64,000 nucleotides of DNA from a virus (IMGVR_UViG_3300028557_000038:2072-66071); one strand, 5' to 3'; shown: positions 3,133 to 19,577, counted from the first letter of the stretch. Notes: generated from the letters alone by a model not told the origin. Made by a program: numbers and translations.

Positions 3133-3552
3133 CTATCGTTGTTCTGTATCAGGGGTGCTATCGCCCCCCTGTGACCCCCCATACTGAAAATGAGTGCGCT
3201 CTAAATAATCAATCGCTCTCTTCATCACTTCAACATCATCTTTCAATAAACCAATTCCACGATTACAGTTATTGCACAGATACCCACGAACTCGATTCGT
3301 TTTGTGATCGTGATCTACCGCTAATTTTTTTGTGGTGTTCTCTTCATGTATTCCACAGATCGCACACTTGTAATCTTGATCTTCTTTTATCACTAATAAT
3401 TCTTGGTAACTAATTCCAAACACTCTCGGCAATCTCTTCATTCGCTTTCGTGACGATCTACAACTCATGCAAATCTTTCGGTGATAGCCATGACCTGTTT
3501 TCTCATAACGATCGAGTGGCTTTTCTACTTGGCACTCTCGGCATTCACGCAT
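3133..3552 (-). CDS. Endonuclease VII-family protein
   Basis: CAIC...LAVDHDHKTNRVRGYLCNNCNRGIGLLKDD signature. Confidence 0.85.
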   Translation of the reverse strand: MRECRECQVEKPLDRYEKTGHGYHRKICMSCRSSRKRMKRLPRVFGISYQELLVIKEDQDYKCAICGIHEENTTKKLAVDHDHKTNRVRGYLCNNCNRGIGLLKDDVEVMKRAIDYLERTHFQYGGSQGGDSTPDTEQR

Positions 3553-3879
3553 CGAACTAATGTAATTGAACTTTCAACTATTCGCTCGGACTTACTTTCA
3601 GCACTAGCGATCTTGGCAGTTACTTCGGGCTATGTGACCCCGATCACATCTCACGCTCAAACTGCCCCGATCAGCCTCACGCTCAATCCCTCTCACAAGC
3701 CTTCTATGGGCTCTCTAACGGCTTTACCCCCAATACTGGAATAAGAACCCTATTCAGGGGGCGTTCGTGTCTCTGTGGCTGATCTGAAAGGGGCGATTTA
3801 TCTCGATCAGGATTAACAGGATTCTCGCCACGCCTGAGTAACCCCTATGAACAGGGTGTACCAACTTGTCGTACAGGTA

Positions 3880-3888
3880 TGCCATACT
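3880..3888 (+). promoter_or_regulatory. Putative extended -10 promoter for the plus-strand early transcript
   Basis: TG-C-CATACT just upstream of the structured leader. Confidence 0.4.
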
Positions 3889-3899
3889 TCTCTCAGTAG

Positions 3900-4555
3900 C
3901 GCACTCGATGTGTGACTTCCGATTTCAGAATCCTCTAGGGGCAAATCGGAAAATCATTCAAAGTGAAAAAAGCGAATCGTTAAAACTGGCAACAGGCTTT
4001 AACAATAATTTAATAATAAATAAACATCGGTGTAGCAACCTGCGAAAGATTTCCCTTAGTGGAAAGTACTTGTGTGACGATCACTTTATTTATTTATTAT
4101 TCATAGTGACTAAGAAACTGCGATTTATTTATTCGGTATTGATTACTACTAGTGATCAGTTACTAAGGCAGAAGGTGTGCGGTCGGACTATACGATGCAA
4201 TAACACCGAATTAAATAATCGATTCGATCATGCTTGCTACGGCGATGCGAATGTAACTAGTAATTACATTCAAGCGGTATTTCAAGGGCGCGGATTAACG
4301 ATTACGAAAGTGATTGTGAATAGCAGTAGGGCTTAGGGAACGAAGTGTGGAGATCGTCATGTAATTAGTGACGGAATGTTTCTACTAGTGAATGCAGGTG
4401 GTAACCAATCCAACCGATTGCACATTGAAACTAATTACAACAACAACGATCAGCACTTCTGCTTATGTGTTAATAGTGATCGATCATCGTAAACAATCAG
4501 CGAATTGTCTCGGTGATCGATCGCTATGGATACATAATCGAATGTATTCAATCCA
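3900..4555 (+). ncRNA. Large structured non-coding RNA (leader of early operon), family unassigned
   Basis: Nested stems: 3917-3925/3943-3951; CTG-GCAA-CAG at 3986-3995; ACGATTAC-GAAA-GTGATTGT at 4298-4317; 4360-4368/4431-4439; 4474-4489/4511-4526; G-U pairs and GNRA loops favour plus-strand RNA. Confidence 0.75.
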
Positions 4556-4587
4556 CTAGTAACTACAAAAGGAAACGGAAAACAAAA

Positions 4588-4830
4588 ATGACAAACAAAA
4601 CAGTAATTGGAACAACAGGTGTGTGGGATTTCTACGACACCAACACACAGAAGTATCTTTATTCATTCAAAGGATTTCTAAGTAAGAAAACACGAATTAA
4701 GTTTCATAAAAACGGATTCGTTCATGTCAATCTTTCAACAAACTTCACTCCATGTGGAGTAGCACCCACAAAACGAGTATTCAACAGAGAATTGCAAAAG
4801 GCTCTAACTACAAAATTGGAAAACAACTAA
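4588..4830 (+). CDS. Hypothetical early protein
   Basis: ATG at 4588 after AAGGAAACGGA; first gene of a tightly packed operon. Confidence 0.6.
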   Translation: MTNKTVIGTTGVWDFYDTNTQKYLYSFKGFLSKKTRIKFHKNGFVHVNLSTNFTPCGVAPTKRVFNRELQKALTTKLENN

Positions 4831-4832
4831 AA

Positions 4833-5006
4833 ATGAGACAACAAACATTCATCGATGCAAAGGGCAACATCGTTGCTCGTGGTCGTATTACAGAGATCGC
4901 TATCGATCTATTACTAAATGACGGAACTCGCTTCTACTCAACAAAGTCAGACAACTACACACTCGACTTCATCAAGAAACTAGACATTGTAAAGGTTGCT
5001 AAATAA
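4833..5006 (+). CDS. Hypothetical protein
   Basis: ATG 2 nt after previous stop. Confidence 0.55.
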   Translation: MRQQTFIDAKGNIVARGRITEIAIDLLLNDGTRFYSTKSDNYTLDFIKKLDIVKVAK

Positions 5007-11851: not shown

Positions 11852-12185
11852 ACTATCATCACACCAAACTGATCTGATTAAATCGATCACGATCGCTAAT
11901 GAGTTTCTAAAGATTGTTCGTGGATTTAAGGTTGATTCAGATCGCAAAGATTCTCTTCCGCAAGAGATAAAGGAGTATCTAGCCAACGAATACTTGAACT
12001 CTGTTATGGAAGATCAGGAGATTGAACCCGAAATGCTTATTTGGGGATTCCTGCACATGATCGAGATTCTCTTGAAGTATGCAGACCTAGACCCCGAAGA
12101 TTTAACGAATGTCATGGATTCATTTGTTAAGTATGTGATTGAAAATCCTGATCAGTATTCAGATCGGAGTACAGATGAAAACTGA
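11844..12185 (+). CDS. Hypothetical protein
   Basis: ORF track, operon packing. Confidence 0.65.
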   Translation: MSELSSHQTDLIKSITIANEFLKIVRGFKVDSDRKDSLPQEIKEYLANEYLNSVMEDQEIEPEMLIWGFLHMIEILLKYADLDPEDLTNVMDSFVKYVIENPDQYSDRSTDEN

Positions 12186-12450
12186 GATCAAGAATGCACC
12201 ATGTCAATCAGCAGGTGTTGACCCTGAATTATTCTTTCCTGACCCAACAGAGTACGAAAAGATTCAACAAGCAAAGTCAATCTGTGGTCAATGTCCTGAG
12301 ATCACAAAGAATAAGTGTCTGACATTCGCACTTGAAAACGGAGTGCAGTACGGAATCTTCGGTGGATTAACAGATCACGATAGAGCCCTGCTACGCCGTA
12401 GAGAGAACCGAAAGTATCGTCAGTATGTATCGGTAGTAGGTGAGTACTAA
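12175..12450 (+). CDS. whiB: WhiB-family transcription factor
   Basis: C...DPELFFP...AKSICGQCP...CL..AL...GIFGGLT. Confidence 0.9.
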   Translation: MKTEIKNAPCQSAGVDPELFFPDPTEYEKIQQAKSICGQCPEITKNKCLTFALENGVQYGIFGGLTDHDRALLRRRENRKYRQYVSVVGEY

Positions 12451-13286: not shown

Positions 13287-13321
13287 GCCCCTAGCCCCCG
13301 ATCGGGCTAGGGGCTTTTTTT
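13287..13321 (+). terminator. Intrinsic terminator of early operon
   Basis: GCCCCTAGCCC-ccgatc-GGGCTAGGGGC followed by T7. Confidence 0.9.
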
Positions 13322-13362: not shown

Positions 13363-13377
13363 ATGAAAGGGGGAATC

Positions 13378-14640
13378 ATGGCTTATGTCGTAAAGCGTGG
13401 AGATAGGTTTACAGGCTATTACAGAAAGGGCGGAAAACGCCTCTCAGCAGGTACATGGGGCTCGGAGATCGATGCCATGTATCACGCCTCAAAAGCAGAG
13501 GTATCGGGTGTCAGCGAGCCTTCTAGGGCTGTATTTACCCTATCGACCTACATCGATTCATGGTTACCGACCGCCGATCTCATGCCGATCACTCGCAAGG
13601 GCTATCGGTCAGTACTCGATCGCTATGTGATTCCGACTCTTGGAACTCGCAAAGTAACTTCGATCGATAGACGGGCGATTCAAGAGTTACTTCAAGCCCT
13701 CAGGGGTCAGGGGGTGGGGTCTGCCACCCTCAATCAGATCAAGGCATCGCTAGGGTCTGCCCTGTCTCAGTTAGTCGATACAGGAGAATTGACCGAGAAC
13801 CCCACTCATGGAATTAAGATCAAGGCGAAACATTCTGACATCTCGAATGTCGTAGAGCCCGAAGAGTTTAAGGCGATTATTCAGCACCTACCGACCGAAG
13901 GGGCTCAGTTATTCGCCCGATTCTTAGTCGCATCAGGTTGCCGATTCGGGGAAGCCACCGAGATCAGGGTCAAGGACATCAACCTAAAGACAGGGGAAGT
14001 CTATGTCCAAAGGCGAGTCAGCGATCTAGGTACAAGCCATACCAGCAGGTTTCTAGTCGTAGAAGCCACAAAGTCAGGGCAAAAGCGAAGCCTTATGTTA
14101 AGCAAAGCCCTACTACAAGAGATTCAGGGCTATGTCATAGCAAAAGCCCTATCAAAAGATGACCTGTTGTTCCCAAGAACGATCATCTTAACAACAGGTA
14201 AACTAAAGACTTCTCGTGGAGAAATGTCTAAGCGACCATTCGCCCAAGACGGAAAACTGTTCCAGCATGGAACTCTGTACGCCTATACACATGGGCGTTG
14301 CCGATGTGAGGCTTGTCGAGAGTCGGTGCGAAAGCACAGGCAAAAGACAAAGCCATACCAAAAGCAACAGAGATTCATCGACCATACGAGTCACCTACCA
14401 CGAGATGTATGGAGAACTACATGGAACAAGGCAATAGCCAAGTCAGGCATCGGTTGGAGTCCTAGAACCCATGATCTCAGACACGCTAACGCTACCCAAC
14501 TTCTAAAAAGTGGGGTAGATGTGCATGAGGTCAAGGAACGCTTAGGGCATCAGTCGATAAAGACGACAGAGCGATACCTACATCGCCTTCGTCACAACCA
14601 GTCAAAGGCATCAGAAAGTGTCAATGACTTTTTGGAGTGA
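13378..14640 (+). CDS. int: Tyrosine recombinase/integrase with Cys-rich insertion
   Basis: GCRFGE (R), TKSG (K), HDLRH, LGH, TTERY; insertion HGTLYAYTHGRCRCEACR. Confidence 0.9.
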   Translation: MAYVVKRGDRFTGYYRKGGKRLSAGTWGSEIDAMYHASKAEVSGVSEPSRAVFTLSTYIDSWLPTADLMPITRKGYRSVLDRYVIPTLGTRKVTSIDRRAIQELLQALRGQGVGSATLNQIKASLGSALSQLVDTGELTENPTHGIKIKAKHSDISNVVEPEEFKAIIQHLPTEGAQLFARFLVASGCRFGEATEIRVKDINLKTGEVYVQRRVSDLGTSHTSRFLVVEATKSGQKRSLMLSKALLQEIQGYVIAKALSKDDLLFPRTIILTTGKLKTSRGEMSKRPFAQDGKLFQHGTLYAYTHGRCRCEACRESVRKHRQKTKPYQKQQRFIDHTSHLPRDVWRTTWNKAIAKSGIGWSPRTHDLRHANATQLLKSGVDVHEVKERLGHQSIKTTERYLHRLRHNQSKASESVNDFLE

Positions 14641-18071: not shown

Positions 18072-19577
18072 TTAGTCTTCTATTGATTCAGAGATAATTT
18101 TAGTAATGGTCTCTTCACGAATTGGATTAGGGAACTCTTTGAGAGCCTGAGCACGATCTCCAAAGATTGCAGAGAGCACTCCACCAGAAGATTGTCGGCT
18201 GGCTGTGATCTGAATGAACTCTTTATTCTGATCCATCTCGTTGACATTACCCACTAACTTGAGTAGGCGATCGATCTCTTGAGAAAGATTTGGATCTGCG
18301 TATCCGCCATTCATTTCCTCTGCAAAACGCATAAAAGCAACTCTCTGCCCCTGCATTTCGATAATTGCAGTAAGTAATGCCTTTAGTTGCTCCTTAGTTT
18401 TTACCTCTACTGGAAGATTAAATGCACAAGTATTTTGCGGCTTGAACGCTGGACAGTTAGAGGCAACGAAGCAGGTATCGCATTGGCGAAGAGAATTCTG
18501 TTGTGTTTTAATGACGGGTACATCTATCAAAACATCGTTGCCATCATCATCTGTCTCAACTATCGTCTTCATTTTGAAACCAAAAACAGGCAAGTTTGTC
18601 ATCTCTTCAGGGGCTCTTTCTACTGCTCCACTGCGCTCCACTTTCCCCCCATCTGCTCCACTGTTATCAGAAGTGGACAGTTCTAATCCCATCAACCCCG
18701 TCATAAACTCATCGCTATTATCAGATAAGTTCTTGTCTTTACCACCATCAATGATGTGGAAGTTGGGGGTCTTCTTGTCCATGGATTCCTCTAGTTTCTT
18801 GTATGACCAGACAGCAACTCTAGTTGCTTCAAGGGTACTATCTTTGACAAACTCTAAATAGTCTAGTCCAGCCTTCTCTACAATGTTCTTGTAGCGAGGT
18901 CGTGCCTGATCCTTCATCTTTTTGGGATAACGTACTAGACGTGCTCCATCCCAGATGATCGTCTCACCTCTACGCATAGGCGATAGCCATGACAATGTGC
19001 TGGCAGTGACAAATGGTATAGATCTTAGGTTGTCTGGCTTGGCACATCCGAGGGCGTGGTAGTTGACTTTGAACTGGTTGGAGTAAGTCCTTGTTACGGC
19101 GGCCAAGTTAGTTACTGACTCGATCTCGTCATGGGGAATAGCCACATTGTGAAAGTTGCGTGACATCTCTGCCAACTTACTCTGGCCATACTCTTCATGC
19201 CATATGACCCATAGTTTAGGGTCGTTACTGAAGAAGGGACGCTGCGCTTCTATCCATTCAAGGCCGAGTATTTGTGAGTCGAACTCTAAGAACCCTTCAG
19301 CACGATCTGCATTGTTGACAAGGAACTCTTGATAGTCAGCGGCCAAGTCAATGAGTTCCTCACGAGATAGCCCAGCCTTGTCAGCCTGTGATGCCCCTGA
19401 TTCAATGTAGACCTTGGTCTCTGGGTCAAAGTGCTCGCTTATAAGCCAGATTTTAGTCTTAGGTAGACCACGCTTACGAAGACCCCAAAAGTTGAGTCCC
19501 ATCGACTCAACTTTCATGCCTTCTAGCAGGGTGCGATTGGAACCAACCTCTACACCTGAAAAGATAAGTTTAGTCAT
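18072..19577 (-). CDS. Hypothetical protein; weak TGT-like N-domain and Cys-rich C-domain
   Basis: YHALGC...LRSIPFVTASTLSW resembles the HxLG...PFxSxDSxSW motif but lacks the Asp; CDTC...NC...C. Confidence 0.4.
   Translation of the reverse strand: MTKLIFSGVEVGSNRTLLEGMKVESMGLNFWGLRKRGLPKTKIWLISEHFDPETKVYIESGASQADKAGLSREELIDLAADYQEFLVNNADRAEGFLEFDSQILGLEWIEAQRPFFSNDPKLWVIWHEEYGQSKLAEMSRNFHNVAIPHDEIESVTNLAAVTRTYSNQFKVNYHALGCAKPDNLRSIPFVTASTLSWLSPMRRGETIIWDGARLVRYPKKMKDQARPRYKNIVEKAGLDYLEFVKDSTLEATRVAVWSYKKLEESMDKKTPNFHIIDGGKDKNLSDNSDEFMTGLMGLELSTSDNSGADGGKVERSGAVERAPEEMTNLPVFGFKMKTIVETDDDGNDVLIDVPVIKTQQNSLRQCDTCFVASNCPAFKPQNTCAFNLPVEVKTKEQLKALLTAIIEMQGQRVAFMRFAEEMNGGYADPNLSQEIDRLLKLVGNVNEMDQNKEFIQITASRQSSGGVLSAIFGDRAQALKEFPNPIREETITKIISESIED

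Follow-up and report, generated by a model that had tools for sequence, protein, structure and literature searches.

A 64-kb window of viral DNA (IMGVR_UViG_3300028557_000038:2072-66071; coordinates count from its first base) contains a conserved, strand-specific, multi-domain RNA structure fixed between an early promoter and the first early gene, which we call the leader. The element shows compensatory base changes, strand-specific G-U pairing and no conserved reading frame, the general marks of a structured non-coding RNA. An earlier note on the window had described an ornate non-coding RNA at 3900-4555, at the head of the early operon. The covariation and the absence of a conserved frame bear this out, and we refine the extent to ~3895-4587; all 37 members examined have it between a conserved promoter and the first early gene. 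A second refinement concerns its nature: the element is a 5′ leader that abuts the ribosome-binding site, not a gene of its own. The leader is conserved within a lineage of uncultured freshwater phages whose sequences resemble those of actinobacterial myoviruses. On an even balance of judgement we read it as a cis-acting 5′ leader that would fold co-transcriptionally and be cut at its terminal hairpin.

Covariation and strand

The + strand of the element folds at −180 kcal/mol, compared with −155.3 ± 6.2 kcal/mol for 20 dinucleotide shuffles (z = −3.98), in line with the earlier call of an RNA. Because the opposite strand likewise folds better than its own shuffles (z = −5.43), the folding energy does not give the strand. 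Comparison with relatives does more. Among 7 close relatives (81-92% identical), 35 of 235 predicted pairs are compensatory, and in the 3′ half a MAFFT alignment of 21 sequences has 35 of 55 predicted pairs compensatory. We also built a covariance model of the 3′ core, R1, which was used after two motif scans of viral, metagenome and genome collections. Across the R1 region of 36 distinct sequences, 95.4% of cells form standard pairs, against 77.8 ± 0.7% with shuffled partners and 26-45% with partners slid by 1-3 columns; 31 of the 40 pairs have changed on both sides, and not one of 500 shuffles matched the observed value on any of five measures. The 36-sequence alignment was fitted to R1 and so favours the structure; the unfitted, MAFFT-based counts from 21 sequences agree, and the 21-sequence shuffle test gave a similar outcome. 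The choice of alignment mattered: RNAalifold on the raw nhmmer alignment recovered almost nothing, with variable stems placed in insert columns, and the cross-group MAFFT alignment of the 5′ domain returned a single helix, P1.

Non-standard cells carry the strand information. In supported helices G-U outnumbers A-C by 122 to 20 (A2) and by 79 to 15 (A4), and in the terminal hairpin, the longest helix, by 43 to 0 over 21 sequences; read as an RNA from the − strand, pairing would drop from ~95% to ~86%. Since a DNA cruciform treats both kinds of cell as mismatches, the excess of G-U argues for a + strand RNA over a DNA-level element. Such an element, whether a replication origin, a packaging or injection-pause site, a cruciform or a set of single-strand hairpins, is very improbable. 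It would account for the folding of both strands, for the A/T-rich inverted repeats and for the location at a switch of transcription direction, and GATC occurs 14 times in 1035 bp here against 6.5 per kb, about twice the window mean. Similar GATC counts are found in other 500-bp bins, however, and an origin in particular is unlikely because of the G-U asymmetry, the conserved promoter that reads into the element and the distance of ~35-40 kb to the lambda-O-like initiator, DnaB, DnaC-like loader and primase.

That the region is a set of unconnected hairpins arisen by chance, or conceals a gene for a protein, is scarcely credible. The only long open reading frame (ORF) in 3553-4587, at 3866-4336 with a TTG start and 156 codons, is open in the window, which is the point in favour of a gene. 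It is interrupted by in-frame stops in 9 of 10 close relatives, its substitutions fall evenly over the codon positions (for example 12/12/11 and 39/38/35), and Pfam and PHROG return no match; the stretch is non-coding. Long-range covarying helices that join the parts of the element speak against chance hairpins.

Domain architecture

The features, all on the + strand, are as follows.

3860-3888: promoter of the leader, with a weak −35 ACCAAC at 3860-3865, a 17-nt spacer and an extended −10
3895-4587: whole leader RNA, ~693 nt, beginning at the predicted start and ending one base short of the ATG at 4588
3917-3951: P1 hairpin, 3917-3925/3943-3951, with an inner hairpin 3931-3933/3938-3940
3954-4003: 5′ hairpins, a small hairpin 3954-3958/3962-3966, the A-rich junction AGUGAAAAAAGC and a GNRA hairpin 3979-3988/3993-4003
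4011-4099: A/U-rich expansion arm, 4011-4024/4085-4099, 4026-4029/4078-4081, 4035-4038/4070-4073 and a hairpin UUUCC..GGAAA
4103-4126: conserved block A (AUAGNGACUA...), near-invariant in 22 aligned rows
4127-4295: variable central insert, with hairpins such as 4140-4145/4153-4158, 4174-4179/4196-4201 and 4249-4254/4266-4271, and local compensatory pairs
4296-4345: GAAA hairpin, stem 4298-4305/4310-4317 and loop 4306-4309, and block B (GUGAAUAGCAGUAGGGCUUAGGGAA), the 3′ strands of the closing helices
4342-4459: 3′ core domain, stacked helices 4342-4348/4453-4459, 4352-4357/4446-4451 and 4360-4369/4430-4439, followed by a three-way junction
4463-4537: terminal long hairpin, closing helix UUAUGU/ACAUAA 4463-4468/4532-4537, a ~19-bp stem 4471-4489/4511-4529 and an inner stem 4493-4497/4504-4508
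4528-4549: small hairpin GGAUACAU/AUGUAUUC, 4528-4535/4542-4549 (alignment columns 1207-1214/1221-1228)
4570-4590: ribosome-binding site AGGAAACGGA at 4570-4579 and ATG at 4588-4590 of the first early gene

The 5′ domain opens with P1, which contains the conserved module UCAGAAUCC-YYUA-GGGGCA. Its pairing is compensatory in 5 of 9 pairs among 11 close sequences and in 6 of 6 predicted pairs among 16 sequences from three groups. In two members (L210 and L230) the whole unit, stem-UCAGAAUCC-YYUA-GGGGCA-stem, is present twice and replaces the CCCUAGGG-type hairpin of the others, so that the hairpin looks like a repeated building block. The hairpins at 3954-4003 are invariant inside the close group and hence show no covariation. 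The GCAA loop picked out by the earlier note lies at 3989-3992, closed by 3979-3988/3993-4003; in relatives the loop reads GUAA and thus remains a GNRA loop. The long A/U-rich helix it had placed at ~4011-4029/~4078-4099 is likewise present, as 4011-4024/4085-4099 together with 4026-4029/4078-4081. This arm has 3 compensatory pairs and encloses the conserved junction GUGACGA at 4074-4080. The mid, far and compact groups of relatives do without the long A/U helix and retain GUGACG and the CCCUAGGG-type hairpin.

The central domain is closed by two long-range helices whose 5′ strands come from block A, 4110-4114 with 4332-4336 and 4117-4121 with 4323-4327. The second of these occurs in 8 sequence variants among the 16 sequences compared, all perfectly complementary: ACUGC/GCAGU, CCUGC/GCAGG, CUUGC/GCAAG, CAUGC/GCAUG, CACAC/GUGUG, AACGC/GCGUU, CACGC/GCGUG and ACUAC/GUAGU. 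The insert within is swapped for unrelated sequence in L016 and L005 and missing from the compact forms, and one RNA-library contig has 240 other letters in place of 4125-4297. For the A/U-rich stem proposed at ~4121-4137/~4204-4221 the picture is mixed. There is an inverted repeat at 4121-4140/4202-4221 that is 80% complementary, but RNAalifold puts 4117-4126 into a long-range helix with 4318-4327 instead, and the 7-relative fold has a stem at columns 710-718/843-852, corresponding to ~4127-4135/4205-4214 with coordinates mapped by eye; the stem is thus only in part as the note had it. The GAAA loop was correctly located: it occupies 4306-4309 on the hairpin 4298-4305/4310-4317, is invariant in 21 of 21 aligned sequences and sits on a stem that covaries through U-G, C-G and U-A.

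In the 3′ core, the stem noted earlier at 4360-4368/4431-4439 is present and extends to 10 bp (4360-4369/4430-4439). The three-way junction comprises P 4375-4378/4423-4426, a hairpin 4379-4381/4390-4392 and a hairpin 4397-4401/4410-4415, the last capped by the invariant loop UAAYCAAU at 4402-4409. The GC-rich compact forms keep the junction alone of the R1 region (R1 positions 65-136), scoring 58-64 bits. The 16-bp helix of the earlier note, 4474-4489/4511-4526, proved to be part of a 26-bp terminal helix, 4463-4489/4511-4537, with no unpaired cell among 286 and 97% pairing across 21 sequences. No U-tract occurs in the window between this hairpin and the first gene, and it is therefore not an intrinsic terminator. 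The small hairpin GGAUACAU/AUGUAUUC is found in the close group and some mid-group members and is missing where ACAUAA directly precedes the ribosome-binding site; where present, it would compete with the 3′ strand of the closing helix, 4532-4537.

Several blocks between the stems hardly vary (the GAAA loop, UAAYCAAU, AUAGNGACUA, GUGAAUAG and GUGACG), and this alternation of invariant unpaired blocks with covarying stems hints at a tertiary fold. We looked for two tertiary contacts. Docking of the GAAA tetraloop to an 11-nt receptor was rejected, as UAUGG is present in most groups but a CCUAAG partner is missing, and so was a pseudoknot of the UAAYCAAU loop with GAUUG, whose partner is not conserved.

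Promoter and upstream DNA

Transcription of the leader is predicted to start at ~3895, downstream of an extended −10 composed of TG at 3880-3881 and CATACT at 3883-3888. The motif TGn-YWYAMT sits 413-583 nt 5′ of the core motif in 27 of the 37 members; one of the other ten is truncated at its 5′ end and nine have no exact copy. Positions T41, G42, A47 and T49 of the promoter are invariant in a 16-sequence alignment. At the homologous site the GC-rich compact relatives have TTGACC-17-AATAGT, without TGn. Members thus have either a strong −35 or an extended −10, as would be expected of a genuine promoter. Homology with relatives extends along the whole leader. Its length, counted from the predicted start to the ATG, is 565-768 nt across members, and the compact forms span ~365 nt; for the window the extracted sequence is 697 nt long, and ~693 nt when counted from the predicted start.

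Other sequences 5′ of the promoter are also conserved. The DNA here looks regulatory at three sites, 3566-3577, 3650-3660 and 3676-3686, made up of a palindrome and a direct repeat. The palindrome, TTGAACTTTCAA, lies within TAATTGAACTTTCAACTA; TAATTGAACTTTCAACTA is near-invariant in all close and mid-group relatives aligned there, with two copies in L008 and L061. The direct repeat CTCACGCTCAA is present as two copies 26 bp apart. Palindrome and repeat are possibly operators or a leftward promoter. At 3727-3752 stands CCCCCAWUACUGGAAUAAGRAAC, which in L013 and L215 is found again 3′ of the terminal hairpin, ahead of the first gene's start codon; L217 and L015 have a similar C-rich stretch just before the first ATG. 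This sequence may represent a ribosome-binding region that has moved, or else a binding site common to both places.

Junction with the first early gene

In all 37 members the element lies directly 5′ of a ribosome-binding site and a small early gene. A purine-rich site with an ATG follows the core motif by 134-250 nt, found by regular expression in 35 members and by eye in the other two. The gene itself differs: a 57-residue protein is encoded first in most close, mid-group and compact members and another protein of ~50 residues in others. The 80-residue first gene of the window (4588-4830) is an insertion shared with L004; it is not in L002, L003, L005, L006 or L016, where the leader passes directly into the 57-residue gene (window 4833-5006). 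The ribosome-binding region upstream of the inserted gene is duplicated at 4805-4832.

That the 3′ junction is a ligand- or factor-sensing aptamer of riboswitch or T-box kind, with the terminal and alternative hairpins gating translation of the first gene, seems unlikely to us. Like riboswitch and T-box leaders, the element has an aptamer-sized three-way junction (~70-95 nt) 5′ of a ribosome-binding site, and in it the stems covary and the nucleotides of junction and loops are invariant. ACAUAA ends 2-5 nt 5′ of that site in several groups, and the close group has mutually exclusive pairings, 4463-4468/4532-4537 or 4528-4535/4542-4549. Unlike those leaders it is far larger, has no terminator hairpin and matches no known riboswitch or T-box model in Rfam; it lies at variable distances from the ribosome-binding site, many members do not have the alternative hairpin, a T-box-like UGG is not conserved, and the conserved 5′ and central domains would be left unexplained.

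Relatives and the extent of the family

We used the AAA ATPase encoded downstream as a locus query, which gave 28 viral contigs. In 23 of these the non-coding region was matched by an nhmmer profile built from the close set, for the most part near full length; three of the five contigs with no match have too little upstream DNA. After the motif scans and R1, homologues came from 37 sources, viral and metagenome contigs, with 36 distinct sequences, and R1 matched the 3′ core in all 37. Each of the six virus records searched whole has exactly one R1 match.

Searches beyond these contigs were negative. R1 found no match in three cultured phages, Cantare of Brevibacterium and ScarletRaider and GMA6 of Gordonia, in the L029 record, or, with stricter filters in the search, in 151 actinobacterial genomes, which are only a sample from the class of an Actinomyces genome. 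None of the 125 bacterial genome loci from the motif scans was confirmed. The first DNA pattern gave at least 120 loci in genome contigs, about the chance expectation by our own estimate, and the nhmmer profile confirmed 0 of 120; the second, stricter pattern gave 5 genome loci, none confirmed by R1, and 7 of its 26 metagenome loci were likewise unconfirmed. With the 80-residue first gene product as the locus query, 32 pattern matches yielded no confirmed member, and none of 50,697 GenBank phage records was matched when 3553-4588 was used as a blastn query.

The four compact, GC-rich members, consisting of the near-identical pairs L214/L212 and L210/L230, span ~365 nt. They retain the start motif, P1 with UCAGAAUCC..GGGGCA, GUGACG, AUAGAGA, the three-way junction, the long terminal hairpin with its closing helix and the ribosome-binding site, and have neither the A/U-rich arm (4011-4099) nor the central insert with its GAAA hairpin (~4127-4345). 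Because of these forms and the central-insert swaps in L016 and L005, we take the 5′ domain, the junction and the terminal hairpin as the core and the A/U helices as lineage-specific expansions. All the stems listed in the earlier note exist in the sequence, but the A/U-rich helix and the 4127-4295 region are features of a lineage that other members lack.

Comparison with known RNAs

We class the leader as a new family among large structured non-coding RNAs of bacteria and phages, distinctive as a promoter-proximal early leader. None of the 4227 families in Rfam 15 reached its gathering score in a cmscan of the whole window. Relaxing the expectation value (E) to 10 over 3400-4800 gave 6 noise matches of 16-19 bits, against gathering scores of 40-155, none of them to GOLLD, ROOL, OLE, HEARO or a riboswitch class, and five relatives searched at E up to 0.1 gave none. 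ARAGORN found no tRNA or transfer-messenger RNA (tmRNA) gene in the window. A literature search at abstract level, with supplements and subscription journals outside its range, did not find the leader.

Candidate memberships were rejected on these grounds. The earlier note had thought of GOLLD and ROOL, had been unable to match either by eye, and had seen no group II domain V, RNase P or tmRNA signature; Rfam and ARAGORN agree on all counts, with no covariance-model match at gathering score to GOLLD, ROOL, OLE or HEARO and none to group I. For an intron of group I or II there is no Rfam match; the element interrupts no gene, being placed after a promoter and before a start codon, and no reverse transcriptase or maturase stands beside it among the Pfam and PHROG matches. 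RNase P RNA, tmRNA and 6S RNA have no Rfam match, and ARAGORN calls no tmRNA. A T-box leader has no Rfam match either, and GGUGGUAACC of the window reads GACGGUAAUC or GACAGUAACC in relatives, so its UGG is not conserved (CGG, CAG). Known riboswitch classes gave no match at E up to 10, nor in the relatives. UUUUCU was considered as an anti-Shine-Dalgarno sequence and set aside, as it is not found in the close group.

GOLLD and ROOL are large, ornate, often phage-borne RNAs, encoded as free-standing genes that often lie beside tRNA genes; GOLLD was first observed in lake metagenomes. They share with the leader a length of several hundred nucleotides, many covarying helices, a multi-domain build and carriage by phages. 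The leader differs in matching neither Rfam model even at E up to 10, in being promoter-proximal and ending at a ribosome-binding site, and in having no tRNA gene in its window.

Presence in RNA libraries

Parts of 3600-4800 were indexed in 24 runs from 20 studies, 17 of them recorded as RNA and all with small shares. We compared four metatranscriptome runs from four studies, all as contigs, for which contig depths and uncovered bins are not evidence. Contig X8 (597 nt) covers 3909-4125 and 4297-4433, with 240 other letters replacing the variable insert; X10 covers 3934-4140; the X4 contigs cover 4318-4486 (169 nt, no differences) and 4457-4537; and X7 covers 3645-4125 and 4297-4485 and continues upstream. 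Metatranscriptomes, to which the earlier note had pointed, thus hold contigs over parts of 3909-4537, and these speak to presence only: the leader sequence or close relatives of it occur in RNA libraries, which is not a statement about transcription, ends or strand.

Proposed function

In the reading we favour, the leader would act in cis on its own transcript, folding while it is made and keeping the untranslated stretch compact; a 700-nt untranslated leader would otherwise be exposed to nucleases and to Rho, an exposure that a compact fold would avoid. Conserved junctions and loops would probably bind a factor, such as RNA polymerase, the ribosome, a protein or a small molecule, that sets the output of the early operon. 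The terminal hairpin would be cut by a double-strand-specific ribonuclease (RNase) of RNase III type, splitting the folded body from the mRNA and leaving the latter with a defined, stem-protected 5′ end. A leader processed in this way would have a double-stranded stem of at least ~20 bp; the 26-bp helix, conserved by covariation, looks like a substrate of this kind. In the close group, the alternative pairing of 4532-4537 with 4542-4549 would permit a switch, a feature that is not general.

Precedents exist for parts of this scheme. RNase III sites occur in the early leader of T7, where site R0.3 precedes gene 0.3, and in that of lambda N. Both resemble the leader in a long untranslated stretch from an early promoter to the first gene with a near-perfect long hairpin at its end; the difference is that here ~365-770 nt are under structural selection, and cleavage here is a proposal. 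We know of no conserved multi-domain fold with invariant junctions in the T7 and lambda N leaders. The put RNAs of phage HK022 and the EAR element of Bacillus are cis-acting antitermination RNAs of ~70-120 nt. They too are structured RNAs just past an early or operon promoter, and they act on their own transcription complex; the leader, at 365-770 nt, has no sequence or model similarity to them. Antitermination is not favoured because the early block has only one predicted strong terminator on the + strand (13287-13314).

Several observations weigh against a cis-acting, processed leader. Start, 3′ end and cleavage site all rest on prediction, and the one strong terminator leaves little for antitermination to act on. 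The distance from terminal hairpin to start codon ranges from ~15 to ~100 nt among members, and because of this variation a simple switch that masks the ribosome-binding site is disfavoured. A start at 3895 is at odds with contig X7, which extends upstream past 3645; the extension may reflect DNA carry-over or read-through, and more widely the library data are contigs from libraries in which DNA may be present. Predicting the structure on the + strand biases the count of G-U over A-C somewhat, a bias by which the 43 to 0 of the terminal hairpin is hard to explain. Finally, the invariant unpaired sequence and the ~365-nt core exceed what a processing or stability leader needs, and fit a stable functional RNA at least as well.

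There is a sizeable minority chance that the folded body persists as a stable RNA and acts in trans, whether as a scaffold for a ribonucleoprotein, as a ribozyme or by self-assembly in the manner of ROOL and GOLLD. The early promoter would then merely be used, and the body, released from the 5′ end of the transcript, would be the phage's first product for host takeover. This would fit the large conserved core, ~365 nt even in compact forms, the many invariant unpaired nucleotides among covarying helices, the invariant GAAA tetraloop, the unconserved spacing to the start codon and a first gene that changes between groups as the RNA stays. The terminal hairpin, resembling double-stranded RNA, could be the release site, and contigs X10 (3934-4140) and X8 (3909-4433) are confined to the element, again a matter of presence only. 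On the other side, the element has no terminator or other defined 3′ end and always lies directly 5′ of a ribosome-binding site, six conserved motifs have no meaningful complementary sites in the window, and a discrete stable species is so far a supposition.

Its strongest form is possible but doubtful: a new class of large RNA (~365-770 nt) with a defined tertiary fold, made as the first product of infection and acting in trans on the host, after release at the terminal hairpin, as a ribonucleoprotein, ribozyme or self-assembling particle. If true, the class would rank with OLE, ROOL and GOLLD and yet be tied to a clear moment in the life cycle of a widespread lineage of lake actinophages. 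Few bacterial or phage RNAs of several hundred nucleotides have such covariation support, and each known class works, or is suspected to work, as a machine and not as a mere switch. Whether it acts in cis, as we favour, or in trans, the leader offers a fixed place at the first bases from an early promoter, a natural size series from ~365 to ~770 nt that marks the essential core, and abundance in lake metagenomes and metatranscriptomes. It is a handle on the start of infection by uncultured phages of dominant freshwater actinobacteria and a good target for chemical probing and cryo-electron microscopy.

Genome context

The source is an IMG/VR virus record of 66 kb with a completeness estimate of 66%; complete relatives of the phage are 95-100 kb. 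The window encodes tail sheath, tail tube and baseplate proteins, together with DnaB, primase, a family-A DNA polymerase and a lambda-O-like initiator for replication, and further a class II ribonucleotide reductase, a DpdA-like transglycosylase, an integrase and a WhiB-like regulator. For the AAA ATPase the closest cultured phages infect Gordonia and Brevibacterium (38-43% identity). The gene content points to an uncultured freshwater myovirus of actinobacteria.

The ORF-free stretch that holds the leader, 3553-4587, is flanked by a leftward endonuclease VII gene (3133-3552, − strand) and by rightward small genes from the first ATG at 4588. That nuclease gene and an HNH gene (2036-2695, + strand), both free-standing, adjoin the conserved RNA region, and relatives have ORFs of varying size (124-139 residues) at their position. 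These are possibly mobile nuclease genes aimed at the conserved RNA element.

Within the early block, the WhiB-like regulator lies at 12139-12450, and the sole strong + strand terminator, 13287-13314, directly precedes the tyrosine integrase (13363-14640). Across the 64 kb, AGCT and CCGG have no sites at all (expected ~244 and ~167), there is strong depletion of CGCG (15), GGCC (52), TATA (65) and ATAT (79), and GATC is in excess, with 419 sites against 244 expected; these skews look like restriction-site avoidance. A DpdA-like queuine tRNA-ribosyltransferase homologue at 18072-19577 suggests that the phage DNA carries a 7-deazaguanine modification.

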